The position numbers were made by a program, and so were the translations under genes. Below are positions 10,581 through 57,520 of a stretch of DNA of 64,000 nucleotides, in pieces. The notes below the pieces were generated by a model. That model saw only the letters and a program-made list of their open reading frames with translations, made no database searches and had not been told where the DNA came from. The DNA is from Octopus vulgaris. Its lineage: Eukaryota. Numbering within the stretch: the stretch's first letter is position 1; every line of letters starts with the position of its first letter. The DNA lies in assembly GCA_951406725.2 (NCBI GenBank), contig OX597830.1, positions 32,612,001 to 32,676,000 of the forward strand. Reading direction: 5' to 3'.

Positions 10581-10740
10581 ACATCGAAAAATACCTTAGG
10601 AATGAGAACCCAGGTTCAAAATTTCCCCAAGACACCTGATGAAGGCTGGAGGGTATATCAGCCGAAACATTGTGTTAAGAAACAAAATGAGGACAAATAT
10701 CCGTCAAATGTAAATAATGTAAATATTGTAAATAATGTAC
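10581..10740 (+). mobile_element. Orphan tail of hammerhead-bearing SINE (family H)
   Basis: Near-identical to 20095-20255. Confidence 0.85.
10631..10676 (+). ncRNA. Minimal type I hammerhead ribozyme motif
   Basis: GACAC-CTGATGA-A-GGCTG-gagggtatat-CAGCC-GAAA-CA-TT-GTGTT: intact core, helix I GACAC/GTGTT, helix II GGCTG/CAGCC. Confidence 0.7.
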
Positions 10741-11717
10741 AAAAATGAATTGCGCAAATTTGGCATCATCCTGAACTGAACACTGAAGACAAACCATTTA
10801 CTCCGATTCCATACCATTTCTCTAAATTCTCTTTGAAATTCTAAAAGAAATGATTCCTCAAAATGGCAAAGGAGCTACAATATGTAGGGCGAGTGGTATA
10901 GCTAATGGTATAAGCCAAGGATATTGCTCCCTCTCTTTCTTTCTGTCTGTCTCTTTTTCACTCACTCATACAACACATAATTTACATTTAAATTAAGATG
11001 AAGGATTTCACTGGATAATGGAGTTTTAGATAACAAAACAAAAAAAAGAAAAGCCAAGTGGAATGGTCATGGCTGGAATATTTTTGATTGGAGTTGACCA
11101 GGAGTTAAAGAACAACAACACTGTCATTATCACCACGACCACAACGATTATCACTGATATTAACAACAGCATCACCCCCCCCCCGTCCCCACCACTACCA
11201 CCCCGCTTCATTATCACCACCATGACAACCACCATCGCCATGACCATCACCACCACCACCACCACCACGATAATGATGACGACGATGACTACCACCACCA
11301 TCACCCGATCATCATCATCATCACTGCCACCACTGCCGCCTCCACCACCATCACCATCGCCACCATTACCACCACCCCCGCAAACACACGCACACACACT
11401 CTGCCACCACCACCGTCACCACCGCTATCAACATCACAACCACCAACCACTGCATCCCCCTCCTGACACTACCATAAACATCAGCACCAGCATCACCAGC
11501 AGCAATACCACCAAACACCCCCACCCCCACCCTATCTTCGCCATCGCCAACCCATCTTTACCACCCCTCCTCCTCCTCCTCAAATAGCACCCATCTCCCC
11601 CGCCACCCACCCACTCCGTTGATGAATCCCAGATGAAGTTAAGTTTTAAGAGATGAAAATAATCACCACCACCACCAACACAACAACAGCAACAATAGCA
11701 AAAACCCACGACAACTC

Positions 11718-19611: not shown

Positions 19612-19902
19612 TATTTTCAAGACTCAAATTATTTATCTCTTCCTTAAAAAAACAATGATAATGTGGTTTAGCAGACATATCCAAACACGCAAAATATATA
19701 TATATTAAAAGTCAGGGTACAAAATGTATCTACAGTTCTATATTTAAGAGATGAAGAATTATATTACATTATTTACATTATTTACATTTGACGGATATTT
19801 GTCCTCATCTTCTTTGTTGTTAATACAACATTTCGGTTGATATAACCACCAGCCTTCATCAGGTGTCTTGGGGAAATTTCGAACCTGGGTTTTCATTCCT
19901 AT

Positions 19903-19977
19903 GGTCATATGGCATAGTGATTAAGAGCTCAGGCTACTAGCTCTAAGATTCCGAGTTCGATTCCAGGCAGTGACCTG
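19903..19977 (+). promoter_or_regulatory. tRNA-derived head with Pol III A and B boxes
   Basis: TGGCATAGTGA (19910-19920) and GAGTTCGATTC (19953-19963); consensus with other copies gives an anticodon arm GGG-CTACTAA-CCC. Confidence 0.75.
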
Positions 19978-19993
19978 AATAGTAATAATAATA

Positions 19994-20034
<41 letters not shown>

Positions 20035-20051
20035 CATGGGGACGACGACGT

Positions 20052-20082
<31 letters not shown>

Positions 20083-20142
20083 AATAATAATAACATCAAA
20101 AAATACCTTAGGAATGAGAACCCAGGTTTGAAATTTCCCCAA

Positions 20143-20188
20143 GACACCTGATGAAGGCAGGAGGGTATATCAGCCGAAACGTTGTGTT
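20143..20188 (+). ncRNA. Minimal type I hammerhead ribozyme motif
   Basis: GACAC-CTGATGA-A-GGCAG-loop-CAGCC-GAAA-CG-TT-GTGTT; mirror copy on the minus strand at ~19822-19867. Confidence 0.7.
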
Positions 20189-20384
20189 AACAAGAAACAA
20201 ATTGAGGACAAATATCCATCAAATGTAAATAATGTAAATAATGTAAATAATGCACATAATTCCTCATCTCTTAAATATAGAACTGTACAAAATGTATCTG
20301 TTTGTTTGAAAGAAGAATGACTTGTATCTCTCATTATATGCAAACTCACATTGAGAATAACAATTACATTTAGTAAAACATAGC

Positions 20385-25430: not shown

Positions 25431-25533
25431 TATACGAAGAACTAGTGCCATGTAAAAAGCACCTGGTACAATCTTGTGTCTGTCTTTGCACCACCCCCAC
25501 CACCCATCGCCATTTGACAACCAGTATTGGTGT

Positions 25534-25691
25534 ACATTATTTACATTATTTACATTTGACAGATATTTGTCATCTTGTTTGTTGTGAACACAACATTTCG
25601 GCTGATATACCCTCCAGCCTTCTTCAGTTGTCTTGGGGTTCTCATTCCTAAGGTATTTTTTGATGTTGTTGTTATTATTATTATTATTATT

Positions 25692-25730
<39 letters not shown>

Positions 25731-25915
25731 CAGGTTACTGCTTGGAATTGAACTCGGAATCTTGGGGTTAGTAACCCATGCTCTTAACCACTATGGCCTA
25801 TGCCCGTGGCCATATGGGGTAGTGGTTAACAACAAACAAGATGAGGACAAATATCCGTCAAATGTAAATAATGTAAATAATGTACATAGTTCCTCATCTC
25901 TTAAAAATAGAACTG
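25534..25915. mobile_element. Family H inverted pair inserted into a SINE-A 3' half
   Basis: (-) tail 25534-25665, microsatellite, (-) head 25731-25805, (+) head stub 25808-25829 fused to (+) tail end; TSD CAGTA(T/C)TGGTGT at 25522-25533 and 25916-25927. Confidence 0.85.
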
Positions 25916-26360
25916 CAGTACTGGTGTGTTTACATGCTCTGGGAATTGGCAGTTTGGCAGAGGAGACTGATAGAATAAGTAACAGGCTTAAAAGACAGAA
26001 AGACAATCCCAAAAAAGCACATAAGTACTGGGTGGGGGTCAATTTATCTAATGAGAAATTCTTCAAGCCAGTACCCTCGTATCACTGCAATCTGATGACT
26101 GAAATATGTAAAAGTTAAAAGCAGCAATAAAAATAATAACGAAGAAATTTTCTTTAAGAAAAAAAATTAAGAAAAGGAGAAAAAAGAAAAAAGAACCACA
26201 CCTCCACCTCTTGTTATGGAATCACATGTTTCCCTGTGGAATCTGAATATTTCTCCATGGTGGGAAATTCCTTGACAAATCTACAACAAAGAACATTTAT
26301 GTACTGAGAAACATATGTATATGTCTTTATGTATATAGTTAAACATATACGAATGCATGC

Positions 26361-51085: not shown

Positions 51086-51557
51086 TAAAACTAGGCTCTT
51101 TACACATTCCAGACTTAATCCAAATTTTGCTTGAATCAACTTGGATTATCCTTTTACTAGGATTAATAAAATAAACGCCAGTCAAATTCTCAAGTCGATA
51201 ACATTGCCCAGGGATTCTCAACAGAGGCTCATACAACCCATTGGGGTCCACGACTGATTTTGTTGTTAGAATTTATCTTTTATCTTTGACTTGCTTCAAT
51301 CATTAGACCGCAGCCAGGCTGGGGCACTGCCTTGAAGAACTTCTAGTCAAATGAATCGATCCCACTACTAATTTATTTTTGTTTTTGGTAAGCCTGGTAC
51401 TTGTTCTGTTGGTTCTTTCACCAAATTGCTAAGCTATGGGGATGTAAACACACCAACATCAGTTGTCAAGTGGTACAAACACAGACACACATATACAGGG
51501 TACAATGGGTAAATTGTTGCTATTTTATATTTTTAATTATCCATATGTGCATTGTTT

Positions 51558-51711
51558 ACATTATTTACATTATTTACATTCGGCGGGTATTTGCCCTCAT
51601 CTTGCTTGTTGTTAAAACAACATTTCAGCTGATATACCCTCCAGCCTTCATCAGGTGTCTTGGGGAAATTTCGAACCTAGGTTCTCATTCCTAAGGTATT
51701 TTTCGATGTTA

Positions 51712-52392: not shown

Positions 52393-52482
<90 letters not shown>

Positions 52483-52643
52483 TCACTGCCTGGAATCGAA
52501 CTTGGATTCGTGGGGTTAGTAGTCTGTGCTCTAAACCACTGATCCATATGCCCATGCAGTGACCTGAACAATAACAATAACAACAACAACAATAATAATA
52601 ATAATAATAACAACAACATCGAAAAGTACCTTAATAAAGTACC

Positions 52644-52702
<59 letters not shown>

Positions 52703-52907
52703 TGATGATGATCAACAATAAAAATAACATTGAAAAATACCTTAGGAATGAGAACCCAGGTTTGAAATTTCCCCAAGACACCTGAAGAAGGCTGGCAGGT
52801 ATGTCAGCCAAAACGTGTTAACAACAAACAAGATGAGGACAAATATCCGTTAAATGTAAATAATGTAAATAATGTCCCTAATTCCTCATCTCTTAAATAT
52901 AGAACTG
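51558..52907. mobile_element. Family H inverted pair
   Basis: (-) tail 51558-51710, (-) head 52479-52553, (+) head end 52556-52567, (+) tail 52727-52907; perfect TSD TATGTGCATTGTTT at 51544-51557 and 52908-52921. Confidence 0.85.
51771..52374 (-). pseudogene. 5'-truncated R4/Dong-clade LINE: restriction-like endonuclease domain and 3' UTR
   Basis: ORF 51962-52348 LWNFPIQTD..ANRPDI..CLLIDMTVP..QKLSKYKDL..IPVAIGALG is an RLE PD-(D/E)xK domain; (TTA)n on both sides. Confidence 0.85.
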
Positions 52908-53777
52908 TATGTGCATTGTTTGTTTTTGATTTTGTTGGCTACACAGTATAGTAGGGTCAGTTGGGCACCATCTGTGAGTAAAAGAGCTCCACGATACAAT
53001 TCACTCTGCTAAATATTTGGAAACTATGCTGTACTACTTGGCATTTGCACCAGAAGCTTCAATATAAACATGTACCAATATGAACATGTACCAATACGAA
53101 CATGTACCAATTTGAACAGGTACCCAGTCTACATCATGGTGTTTGGAGTGATCACCATTGATGGTGAGGTGATGCCTCCATTCATCTTTCCACATGGCCT
53201 CAGACTCAACACAAAGTCCTACATTAAGTGCCTGGTGGAAGTAGGGTTGCTCTGGGTCAAGAGAATGTCTGCTGGAAGACCCTATGCCTGGCAACAGGAC
53301 TCTGCACGATGCCACACAAGCAAGAGAACCCAGTCACGGCTGTCAGACAATTTCTGCGACCATATCACCCCTAACATCTAGCAACCTAACTCTCTACACT
53401 GCAACCCCCTTGATTATTATGTATGGGGCACAGTTGAGTGAGAGACCAACAAAAGTCCTTGTAACAACAATGATGAACTGAAGGCAAAGATTATGGCAGC
53501 ATTCACCAACTTAAACAAGGAGACCACCAGAAGAATTGCAAGAGTTTCTGAAGTCGTCTGGAGGCCATGGTTGAAGCCAATGGCGATTTTATTAAATAAA
53601 TTTACTCTTTAGTATTTCAAGATATTTTTATGTAATTTTGGTAAATATATCTGTTAAAATGAGATGTCAGTGTCATTTTCATTGTTTGCATAATTTAGAC
53701 AACTAGTTTATTCATTGCACCCTGTGTGTATATGTATATATATATATATGGAGAGAGAGGGAGAGGGGGAGAGAGAG

Positions 53778-55835: not shown

Positions 55836-56401
55836 TACATATATATATGTATCAAAAGAAAAACAGGACGCAAAGGATTTTGCGGTACATATGTTTTGGG
55901 CTTTATTGAACAACTTATTCTTATATCAATGCATAATTGATATAACAGATAGATCAAAAGCCTTCTTCAGCCACGTACAATTGCCACACCAAAGACTTGT
56001 ATCACATTATAACAGGTTTGAGAAAGAGTTTGAAAAAAAACCGTTGGGAAAGTAAATCCTCATAGGCGTACATGGTATTGCGAGACTCCAAAACAAATCG
56101 TCCATACCGTTTCTTCACTCGGTAAAGAATGAATACTGGGTAGATTACTTCATATAGGGGAAGGTATTGGATGTTGAGAGAAAAAGGAAAGGAGGGGAAG
56201 GGGTGAAACTTTAATGAAGTTGGGATCACAAACAAGGAAAAATATATATATAAATTTAAACATAATTATAAAGGATGATAATAAATATAAAATATAATAA
56301 AAAATATAATAAAAAACGTAAAGATGTAAAGAAATAAGTATATAAAGATACAAAGGACGTCACGTATAGGGTCATAAATTCTAGAAATGTATATATATAT
56401 A

Positions 56402-56524
56402 TATATTAGAAGAAATGAGGTACTCAGAAATCTGGATGGTTTTATATTTACAGATATTTATTAAATATATCTGTAAATATAAAAACCATCCGGATTTCTG
56501 AGTACCTCATTTCTTCTAATATAT
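56402..56524. repeat. Near-perfect palindrome with ~57 bp arms
   Basis: TATATTAGAAGAAATGAGGTACTCAGAAATC... versus its reverse complement, one mismatch and one indel. Confidence 0.9.
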
Positions 56525-56934
56525 AATACCTGTACATCATCTCCAAACCTTCTAATATATATATATATGATTTTTATATACATATATATATATATGTGAT
56601 ATATATTTACAGGTTTGGCTAATGTGGTTACAATGTCTACTGTGAAACCAAATGATTCAGGCTTCATTTCTGCTGTTTGTCATTCACAAAAGCTTCAAAA
56701 TATAATCAAAACTGTGTCAAAAACATTTGTTTGTTGTCTTTGTGGTTATTTAGCTCCAGCTTGGCTCTGAATGAGGAGGCCTCTTCCAGCAATGAAGAAT
56801 TCTTCTCTTCTTATATATCTGGGAAATTATAGTTCAGGTATTTAACGTGGCCAGTTTTTACCAAATTAATGGGGTGGATAAAAAAAGTCTATATATTTCT
56901 GAGACAAAGAATTTTTAGATAATGTATTAGTTGG

Positions 56935-57285
56935 AGTTATTATGGCTTTTAGTATGTTTCATCTGCATATACTCCAGCCTTCTTCAGGTGTCTTCTGGTT
57001 CACCTTAGCGCCTTGATCGGTATTGAAGTCAGAACTTCTAGATGACTGCACTGCATTAAGCAGTGCCTTAATCAACTACGCTATTTCTGTAGGCAGAGTC
57101 AGAATAAATTTTTAAAACTTAGTGGATAAAGGTATTGAAATGCATTGCAGTCATCTAGGGGCACTGAGTTCAATCCCAGGTAAGGCACTAAGGTAAATCA
57201 CAAGACACCTGAAAAAGGTGGGGGGGGGGGACATAAAACAGCTAAAACCTAGTGAAAATAACAATGAAGGTGAGGACACTATTTT
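56935..57285. mobile_element. Second tRNA-headed, hammerhead-motif SINE family (H2), head-to-head pair
   Basis: (-) arm ~56935-57085 and (+) arm ~57117-57285 share TGCAGTCATCTAG, a GAGTTCAATCCC-like B-box, AAGGC.CTAAGGT and AAGACACCTGAA. Confidence 0.7.
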
Positions 57286-57329
57286 GACCATTACATAGAA
57301 TAGAAGAGTGGAATTTGAGTAAGATTAGT

Positions 57330-57520
57330 TTTGGACTGCAGCCATGCTTGGGCAGTCCTTTGAAGGGTTTCGTTGAACAAGACGACCCCTAATACTTATT
57401 TCGTTTTAAGCTTGGTACTTATTGTATTAGTAACTTTTGCTGAACTGCGAAGTTAAAGGTATATAAATTAACTAACATGGGTGGTCAAGTGATGGAAGGT
57501 ACAAACATAATCACAAAAAG
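57330..57520 (-). mobile_element. Degenerate SINE-A 3' half
   Basis: Homology to SINE-A. Confidence 0.6.

Follow-up and report, generated by a model that had tools for sequence, protein, structure and literature searches.

A stretch of 64,000 nucleotides (nt) of the Octopus vulgaris genome (assembly GCA_951406725.2, contig OX597830.1, positions 32,612,001 to 32,676,000), here called the window and numbered from its first letter, carries near its right end two diverged copies of a repeat that face outward from a common junction. Both copies, or arms, belong to an old family named H2, of which H is the younger sister family and H2L a longer subfamily. It seems quite probable that these arms are decayed copies, lacking any open reading frame (ORF), of a pseudo-long terminal repeat (pLTR) which came from an old Penelope/Poseidon-type retrotransposon and in which a tRNA-like head lies upstream of a minimal hammerhead motif, and that a single insertion likely brought in both of them, the element's own reverse transcriptase (RT) and endonuclease acting in trans. 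An earlier note, made from the letters of the window, had described such a pair at 56935..57285. Its two outward-facing arms are present, with 77% identity over 101 aligned nt (E 6e-17 in a comparison within the window), and their true extent is slightly wider than noted. The motifs that it quoted lie at 56950-56990 on the minus strand and at 57120-57177 and 57266-57279 on the plus strand, and the absence of a microsatellite linker in the pair is borne out.

Arm 1 (56889-57121, on the minus strand like all its parts) matches positions 32-283 of an nhmmer profile of H2 built on 29 genomic copies other than the window arms. It is an ORF-less pLTR derivative of the short H2 form, made up of part of the leader, the head, the hammerhead and the full 3' tail, and it diverges by 19% from the H2 family majority (non-CpG). 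The leader (57084-57121) is homologous to the DNA that follows the ORF stop codon in family-H and H2-type copies of a Penelope-like element (PLE). The tRNA-like head (57019-57083) has an A box with one mismatch (57073-57083) and a damaged B box (57019-57030), which are spaced 10 nt more widely than in a standard tRNA. The minimal type I hammerhead motif (56950-56990) keeps its CUGAAGA core and extra A intact and is damaged in stem II, in the 15.2-16.2 pair and in the 3' strand of stem I. The 3' tail (56889-56949) extends to the terminal PLE-type tail extension; it is 14 nt shorter than in the family, and a contig from a run labelled as another organism has 14 extra nt there. Arm 2, also of the short form (about 57120-57297, plus strand; profile placement 57118-57301, model positions 73-250), diverges by 16% from the same majority (non-CpG), is 5'-truncated within the A box and stops about 33 model positions short of arm 1. 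Its tRNA-like head (57120-57177) retains half an A box and an intact B box (57166-57177), and its hammerhead (57206-57254) is decayed, as G8 and G12 are changed and a run of G stands in place of stem II. The arm limits overlap at the inversion junction (57120-57121), which shows about 2 nt of microhomology (TA). Just outside the arms, 56876-56888 and 57298-57309 (both read on the plus strand) may be the left and right copies of a decayed target site duplication (TSD): about 9 of 13 letters match by eye, and this match is A-rich, not significant and without an exact word of at least 6 nt. In neither arm are the A and B boxes both intact. ARAGORN and a gathering-mode Rfam scan of the window returned neither a tRNA nor a hammerhead, nor did the E-value mode of Rfam on nine loci, but these results are uninformative because the heads are decayed and the hammerheads minimal. 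The locus is a dead relic without sign of function.

The family to which the pair belongs was followed in the whole genome, which comprises 2.8 Gb and is rich in microsatellites. BLAST with the minus-strand arm, in which 40 of 117 candidates received a score, listed at least 42 matches in the genome. One 21-mer of the H2 head has 23 exact occurrences in the genome and is found in just 1 of 40 head-covering copies detected independently of it, which suggests a low copy number, of very roughly a thousand. Sixty arbitrary 10-kb stretches (600 kb) contained no H2 head, against 11 family-H tail matches; family H arms should therefore number in the tens of thousands. The greater age that the earlier note had attributed to H2 is supported by the non-CpG divergence from the column majority, which is 12% in 122 H2 copies (all of them best matches, so that this figure is biased low) and 4-5% in sets of 12 and 65 H copies. 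Moreover, the contig with the other organism label spans the unique left flank, the minus-strand arm and the junction with 12 differences, so the insertion of the pair likely predates the split from that organism. In H2L, a body of about 115 nt separates the head from the ribozyme. The short H2 of the window lacks both the ORF and this body and is an internally deleted derivative. The tail end of short H2 is fused directly to a leader in 10 of 30 leader-selected loci, forming partial tandems, and several short copies reach 5' through an upstream ribozyme; the templates therefore exceeded one unit. The H2 loci L014 and L027, which are almost identical and lie on the same contig at a distance of about 147 kb, likely represent a segmental duplication and were counted as one. 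At another locus (L266:1-1500, minus strand) the start of the H2 head has grown into a tandem minisatellite of about 12-nt units.

The hammerhead-type motif ascribed to the pair's family is best judged on the family as a whole. In 116 aligned H2 rows, the majority states give the CUGAAGA core, the extra A, a GGCUG/CAGCC stem II and GAAA, and the core letters are kept in 95-114 rows, so that the H2 consensus does hold the CUGANGA/GAAA core. The C/T-G/A splits at 11.1/12 and 15.2/16.2 correspond to CpG decay, and this pattern points to an ancestral H2 hammerhead GAAACGUA with a palindromic ACGU helix III. The hallmarks of the minimal hammerhead ribozymes (min-HHRs) of PLEs, namely CUGANGA/GAAA, an additional nt after position 9, G10.1-C11.1, a palindromic 15.2-16.2 and NUH, characterize the H2 majority and neither window copy. 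The majority fits four hallmarks of this ribozyme in the accessible text of Cervera and de la Pena 2014 (PMC4209133), where it is proposed to act as a dimer and is credited with weak activity in vitro. Stem I has 3 base pairs (bp) in H2 and 5 bp in H, the norm for min-HHRs being 4-5 bp. Stems I and II form in the fold of one natural copy (z -2.8); neither window arm forms the motif on folding, and both window hammerheads are predicted to be inactive. As far as its letters allow a judgement, the H2 majority is a minimal, dimer-type hammerhead of putative cleavage activity.

The origin of these repeats is suggested by family-H copies, some of which run 5' into a reading frame. A search with 62 residues of this frame gave 3366 candidates, and in 28 of the 30 ORF-end loci that were fetched the stop codon is followed by the H head and/or the ribozyme-tail. 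The longer H-lineage copies encode DKG, RT and YVDD motifs along with a linker that has no zinc finger and a GIY-YIG domain in which a CxC occurs; by eye, the H-lineage translations have a CCHH motif whose two cysteines fall within GIY-YIG and no CX2-5CxxC linker finger. A 262-amino-acid (aa) piece of the H-lineage PLE was related by the protein atlas (0.97) to HTH_animal/GIY-YIG clusters. The GIY-YIG cysteines and the missing linker finger are among the features that set Penelope/Poseidon-type PLEs apart in the accessible part of Craig et al. 2021 (PMC8557442), and, placed by such sequence features, family H is the pLTR of a Penelope/Poseidon-type PLE. Every H-lineage PLE copy seen is broken. 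The H2-lineage ORF is known from the C-terminal part of its endonuclease at six loci (L294-L299), where the H2 head lies directly 3' of a sister GIY-YIG C-terminus (tblastn E 2e-29 to 7e-6). The 3' end of H and H2 is thus common to a PLE and not to a long interspersed nuclear element (LINE). One of the six loci (L155, the same as L294), in which the CxC is also present, is an H2-type PLE insertion with an inversion breakpoint inside the GIY-YIG ORF and a deletion in one arm that reaches from the middle of the ORF to the pLTR body. Matches of a GIY-YIG family search belong to other PLE families; 30 loci had no H/H2 tail in the 3' flank, and these families were rejected as partners. A young PLE-like family (L120, L125 and others) combines RT with a C-terminal GIY-YIG and has 781-aa open frames in 16 of the 150 matches listed; it is a candidate active element, and none of the 30 loci checked carries an H/H2-type pLTR. 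The H2L body was also considered as a decayed GIY-YIG C-terminus (RTVYPHGxN-like); the degenerate pattern gave 0 matches and the idea was dropped. A PDB sequence search returned nothing relevant.

The geometry of the pair was compared with that of 119 H2 loci, reduced to 98 after duplicates were dropped. An inverted H2 piece lies on the 5' side at 43 of these 98 loci and on the 3' side at none. Heads are kept on both arms at 12 of the 98 loci and at 11 of the 44 head-anchored ones, tail-anchored loci under-counting such pairs. The pairing claimed by the earlier note is thus common but not the rule, and the head-to-head arrangement, although confirmed as a tendency, is the ordinary 5'-inversion signature of PLEs and no special property of these elements. 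Where the 3' ends of both arms could be measured, 24 of 36 H2 arm pairs have the full tail of about 30 nt on a single arm and 2 have it on both (three loci were counted repeatedly); the corresponding figures for H are 13 and 1 of 16 pairs. The 3' ends of the window pair fall at model positions 282 and 249. An adjacent inverted 5'-truncated copy and a one-sided tail of 30-40 bp are PLE traits according to the accessible part of PMC8557442, and the available text of Frangieh et al. 2024 (PMC11167929) derives the PLE tail from two RT start sites and reports that hammerhead cleavage is not needed for insertion in vitro. Direct repeats of at least 8 nt surround 9 of 13 whole H pairs, compared with 4.5% of mismatched controls, and 7 of 25 H2 pairs, compared with 4.3%, several of the H2 repeats being of low complexity. 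In the tails of H and H2 (e.g. 20203-20270) a 9-nt inverted repeat closes an A/C-rich loop; by analogy with the structure described for Anolis Poseidon, it is a candidate RT-initiation hairpin.

These traits could be brought together in the following scenario. An ancestral PLE would have captured one tRNA(Arg)-like sequence just 3' of its stop codon. The A and B boxes of this head would likely act as an internal promoter for RNA polymerase III (Pol III) and give rise to short head-to-tail RNAs in H and H2L, and the short H2 unit, being free of T runs, would likely be read through into more-than-unit or circular RNA. The 3' hairpin or tail would be bound by the PLE protein, which would start reverse transcription from one or the other of two closely spaced sites. 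Two cDNAs would then be joined head to head, and the product would show an inverted partner on the 5' side, a tail on a single arm and a TSD enclosing both arms. Cleavage by the hammerhead would require a dimer, and insertion may do without it. The captured head would likely let short copies spread alone, in the manner of short interspersed nuclear elements (SINEs). That a PLE lineage with a captured tRNA-Arg Pol III promoter in its pLTR, kept through its subfamilies, has been a standing source of PLE-mobilised SINEs (head-initiated in H and H2L, derived from multimeric or circular RNA in short H2) is a more tentative proposal, to which we would grant somewhat less than an even chance.

The earlier note had regarded the H2 head as different from that of H and had concluded that the ribozyme tail was coupled to at least two heads, making up a modular class of elements. 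The majority sequences of both families are nevertheless collinear across the ORF end (90/106, 85%), the leader (34/43, 79%) and the head (43/60, 72%), and the match between the leaders, which are not tRNA-derived, has a score reached by none of 2000 shuffles. This collinearity speaks for one head and not two, that of H2 having gained 10 nt by insertion. Homology and collinearity likewise extend to the trailer on the 3' side. Trees of 15 natural copies, based on short segments and including one row with an interrupted head, give a well-supported split between H2 and H both from the ORF end plus leader and from the head, and a bridging copy (L300) combines an H-type head with an H2L-type body. 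L300 and L303 represent an intermediate PLE subfamily, with H-type head length and H2L-type body, which could serve to date both the 10-nt insertion and the (AAT)n linker. The kinship with family H and the tRNA-like nature of the head, both proposed by the earlier note, are upheld: among the genomic tRNAs compared, the H2 head is nearest to Arg(TCT) (z 5.6), and of 73 H2 heads 27 keep the A box, 43 the B box and 17 both. A regex for other SINE heads, run as a control, returned none. An independent joining of the tail to two tRNA heads, or the swapping of a head in place, could explain the 10-nt insertion, the 28% of head sites that differ, a head that diverges faster than its flanks and the different best matches of the H head (Arg(TCG), z 8.3, then Arg(TCT), z 7.1). 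Yet the H2 head is closer to the H head (z 8.1) than to any tRNA tested, even if the H head scores as high with tRNA-Arg(TCG), and the homology on both sides of the head, the agreement of the trees and the intermediate subfamily make such repeated or exchanged captures improbable. Judging from these alignments, H and H2 are sister lineages of one PLE, whose parts, from the ORF end through leader, head and body to ribozyme and tail, have been inherited as one, and a single capture of one tRNA(Arg)-like head is the simplest explanation.

Given the same PLE origin of the repeats, the head could still be a passive old insertion in the pLTR, the pile-up of 5' ends resulting from RT stalling or fold-back at a palindrome on RNA polymerase II read-through RNA. 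A small palindrome indeed lies at the start cluster, a short way upstream of the A box, and forms the centre of several H pairs; 25 of 29 short-H2 copies extend more than 20 nt past that start into the leader, so it is not obligatory; and pLTRs of PLEs are reported to have a promoter of their own (PMC6765202, in its accessible part). However, short H2 has a similar palindrome and is read through. The A and B boxes are kept at tRNA-like positions in the majority of both lineages, and 26 of 30 head-selected H copies begin at most 25 nt upstream of the A box, at the Pol III-like sites -2 to -25; truncation inside the ORF, at 0.0019 per nt, gives about 5% expected, with 1 of 29 observed. Similarly, among the 14 long-H2 copies extending as far as the A box, 11 start at model positions 54-72, and the sense strand of short H2 has no run of at least 4 T, which is compatible with Pol III read-through. 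Pol III use of the head is what we infer from these positions, and the passive head appears a less likely but by no means negligible alternative. A search of sequencing runs listed no RNA run as a holder. Family-H-like contigs found in four presumed RNA runs are not used as evidence, since start, strand and polymerase are not visible in them. With regard to the window pair, an origin by two independent insertions, or by inversion or duplication at a later time, would be in line with the lack of an exact TSD (longest common word 5 nt), with the difference between the arms at a recurring indel variant and with an excess of shared derived letters in paired arms that is not significant (its value was reached by 119 of 2000 resamples in H2 and 849 of 2000 in H). 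It is accordingly the geometry of the pair, and not common mutations, that speaks for a single event. The earlier note was right that no TSD can be discerned at the pair itself, although TSD-like repeats do flank whole pairs in H and, more weakly, in H2. Nevertheless, with no H2 head in 600 kb of arbitrary sequence, chance adjacency is unlikely, partners are found on the 5' side only and the tail asymmetry of the pair fits the family pattern, so that separate events seem less probable still than repeated captures of the head. The same three observations on the pair count against the co-inserted, decayed pLTR copies that we favour, and so do several others. Heads differ between copies by 0.42, compared with 0.29-0.35 in the flanks, and the donor comparison rests on 10 tRNA isotypes only. 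No compensatory changes were found in the hammerhead stems between H and H2, the full core is retained by just 3 of 122 H2 copies, and a strict hammerhead descriptor is passed by none; this descriptor likewise had 0 matches in the 600 kb of arbitrary sequence and 0 in the 20 shuffles made, so that this control is uninformative. A Pfam scan of a 302-aa fragment of the H-lineage PLE found 0 families, and no intact ORF was seen in either lineage, the longest open frame being 362 aa among 150 matches of the search with the 62 residues and the long copies being frameshifted.

The window contains other repeats. Family H is represented by pLTRs of the younger sister PLE at 10583-10761, 19730-20288, 25530-25917, 51543-51707 and 52475-52911; the copies at 19730-20288 (L204) form a young inverted pair with a TSD-like repeat of 15 nt on its two sides. 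A near-perfect palindrome at 56400-56525, some 370 nt to the left of the H2 pair, has 44-nt arms that are 98% complementary and continues inward via 18-nt arms. Directly right of the pair, about 57320-57470, lies a fragment of a different and far more abundant repeat with very high summed contig depth.

SINEs are normally partnered with LINEs. If the more tentative proposal of PLE-mobilised SINEs were true, a PLE instead of a LINE would drive a class of SINEs, the transition from SINE to retrozyme would be visible in one genome, and PLE-mobilised SINEs would seed that genome with ready-made inverted repeats. The physical linkage of parent ORF, captured head and short derivatives makes the stepwise origin of a PLE-dependent SINE-like or retrozyme-like element traceable, and it might serve as a model for the rise of elements that combine Pol III promoters and hammerheads, such as SM-alpha. 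We would further suggest that part of the large unclassified octopus SINE fraction may be PLE ends: the accessible part of a 2026 repeat paper on O. vulgaris (PMC13282606) leaves 893 of 900 recently active SINE families unclassified and does not mention ribozymes. More speculatively, transcription of head-to-head pairs would yield long double-stranded RNA, with possible importance for A-to-I editing in cephalopods.

A tRNA-derived head in a PLE pLTR and PLE-mobilised SINEs were not found in the literature searched, outside of which lay most subscription papers and Repbase/Dfam, and it may be that H and H2 already bear a SINE or Penelope name in some catalogue. As far as the accessible texts go, PLE min-HHRs, opposite-strand hammerhead pairs, pLTR-derived retrozymes and the association of a Pol III promoter with a hammerhead in SM-alpha are already published. 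Compared with the Penelope/Poseidon PLEs of PMC4209133, PMC8557442 and PMC11167929, H and H2 are alike in RT with C-terminal GIY-YIG, a pLTR with min-HHR, 5' truncation, partial tandems, an inverted 5' copy and a one-sided tail of 30-40 nt, and the accessible part of PMC4209133 already describes dual min-HHRs that lie 100-700 bp from each other on opposite strands. They differ in that their pLTR has a tRNA-derived head with A and B boxes, at which most H copies start, and in that short H2 is ORF-less; in the available portions of these sources, the word 'tRNA' is absent from PMC11167929 and occurs once, in an unrelated context, in PMC8557442.

Short H2 also resembles the non-LTR retrozymes of animals (PMC7229834, accessible part) in its non-coding unit of about 290 nt, type I hammerhead, PLE-pLTR origin and more-than-unit copies. 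Retrozymes, however, are full-unit tandem arrays with canonical hammerheads, whereas H2 consists of dispersed monomers, partial dimers and inverted pairs with a minimal hammerhead and a tRNA-like head; a search for full-unit tandems with an intact type I hammerhead, limited to 3-kb loci, found only partial dimers of at most about 1.7 units (L280). A preprint (bioRxiv 10.64898/2026.07.22.740005) derives retrozymes from PLE pLTRs and, in its accessible text, mentions neither tRNA, Pol III nor molluscs. In schistosomes, the SINE-like elements SM-alpha and Sj-alpha are similarly short repeated units in which a type I hammerhead comes after a Pol III-type promoter (PMC6765202, PMC8490949), but the hammerhead of SM-alpha is canonical and active and, in the accessible parts of these papers, no parent PLE ORF is described, while the head of H and H2 lies inside the pLTR of ORF-bearing PLE copies. 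Another parallel is provided by the Helenus and Cassandra terminal-repeat retrotransposons in miniature (PMC10886601, accessible part), where a Pol III-type sequence derived from a small RNA was captured in the terminal repeat; those are non-autonomous LTR elements, and H and H2 belong to a PLE pseudo-LTR that is also found in ORF-bearing copies. With the tRNA-derived SINEs of octopus, H and H2 share the tRNA-like head and the short, non-coding, dispersed nature of the repeat; they differ in a 3' end that comes from a PLE and not from a LINE, the comparison with named SINEs being by description only. Such octopus SINEs were reportedly described by Ohshima and Okada in 1994, under names said to be OK and OR, and a 'Twin' SINE reportedly by Albertin et al. 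in 2015. Short H2 thus works like a non-autonomous PLE derivative, which is no canonical SINE, as its partner is a PLE, and which falls outside the tandem-array definition of retrozymes.
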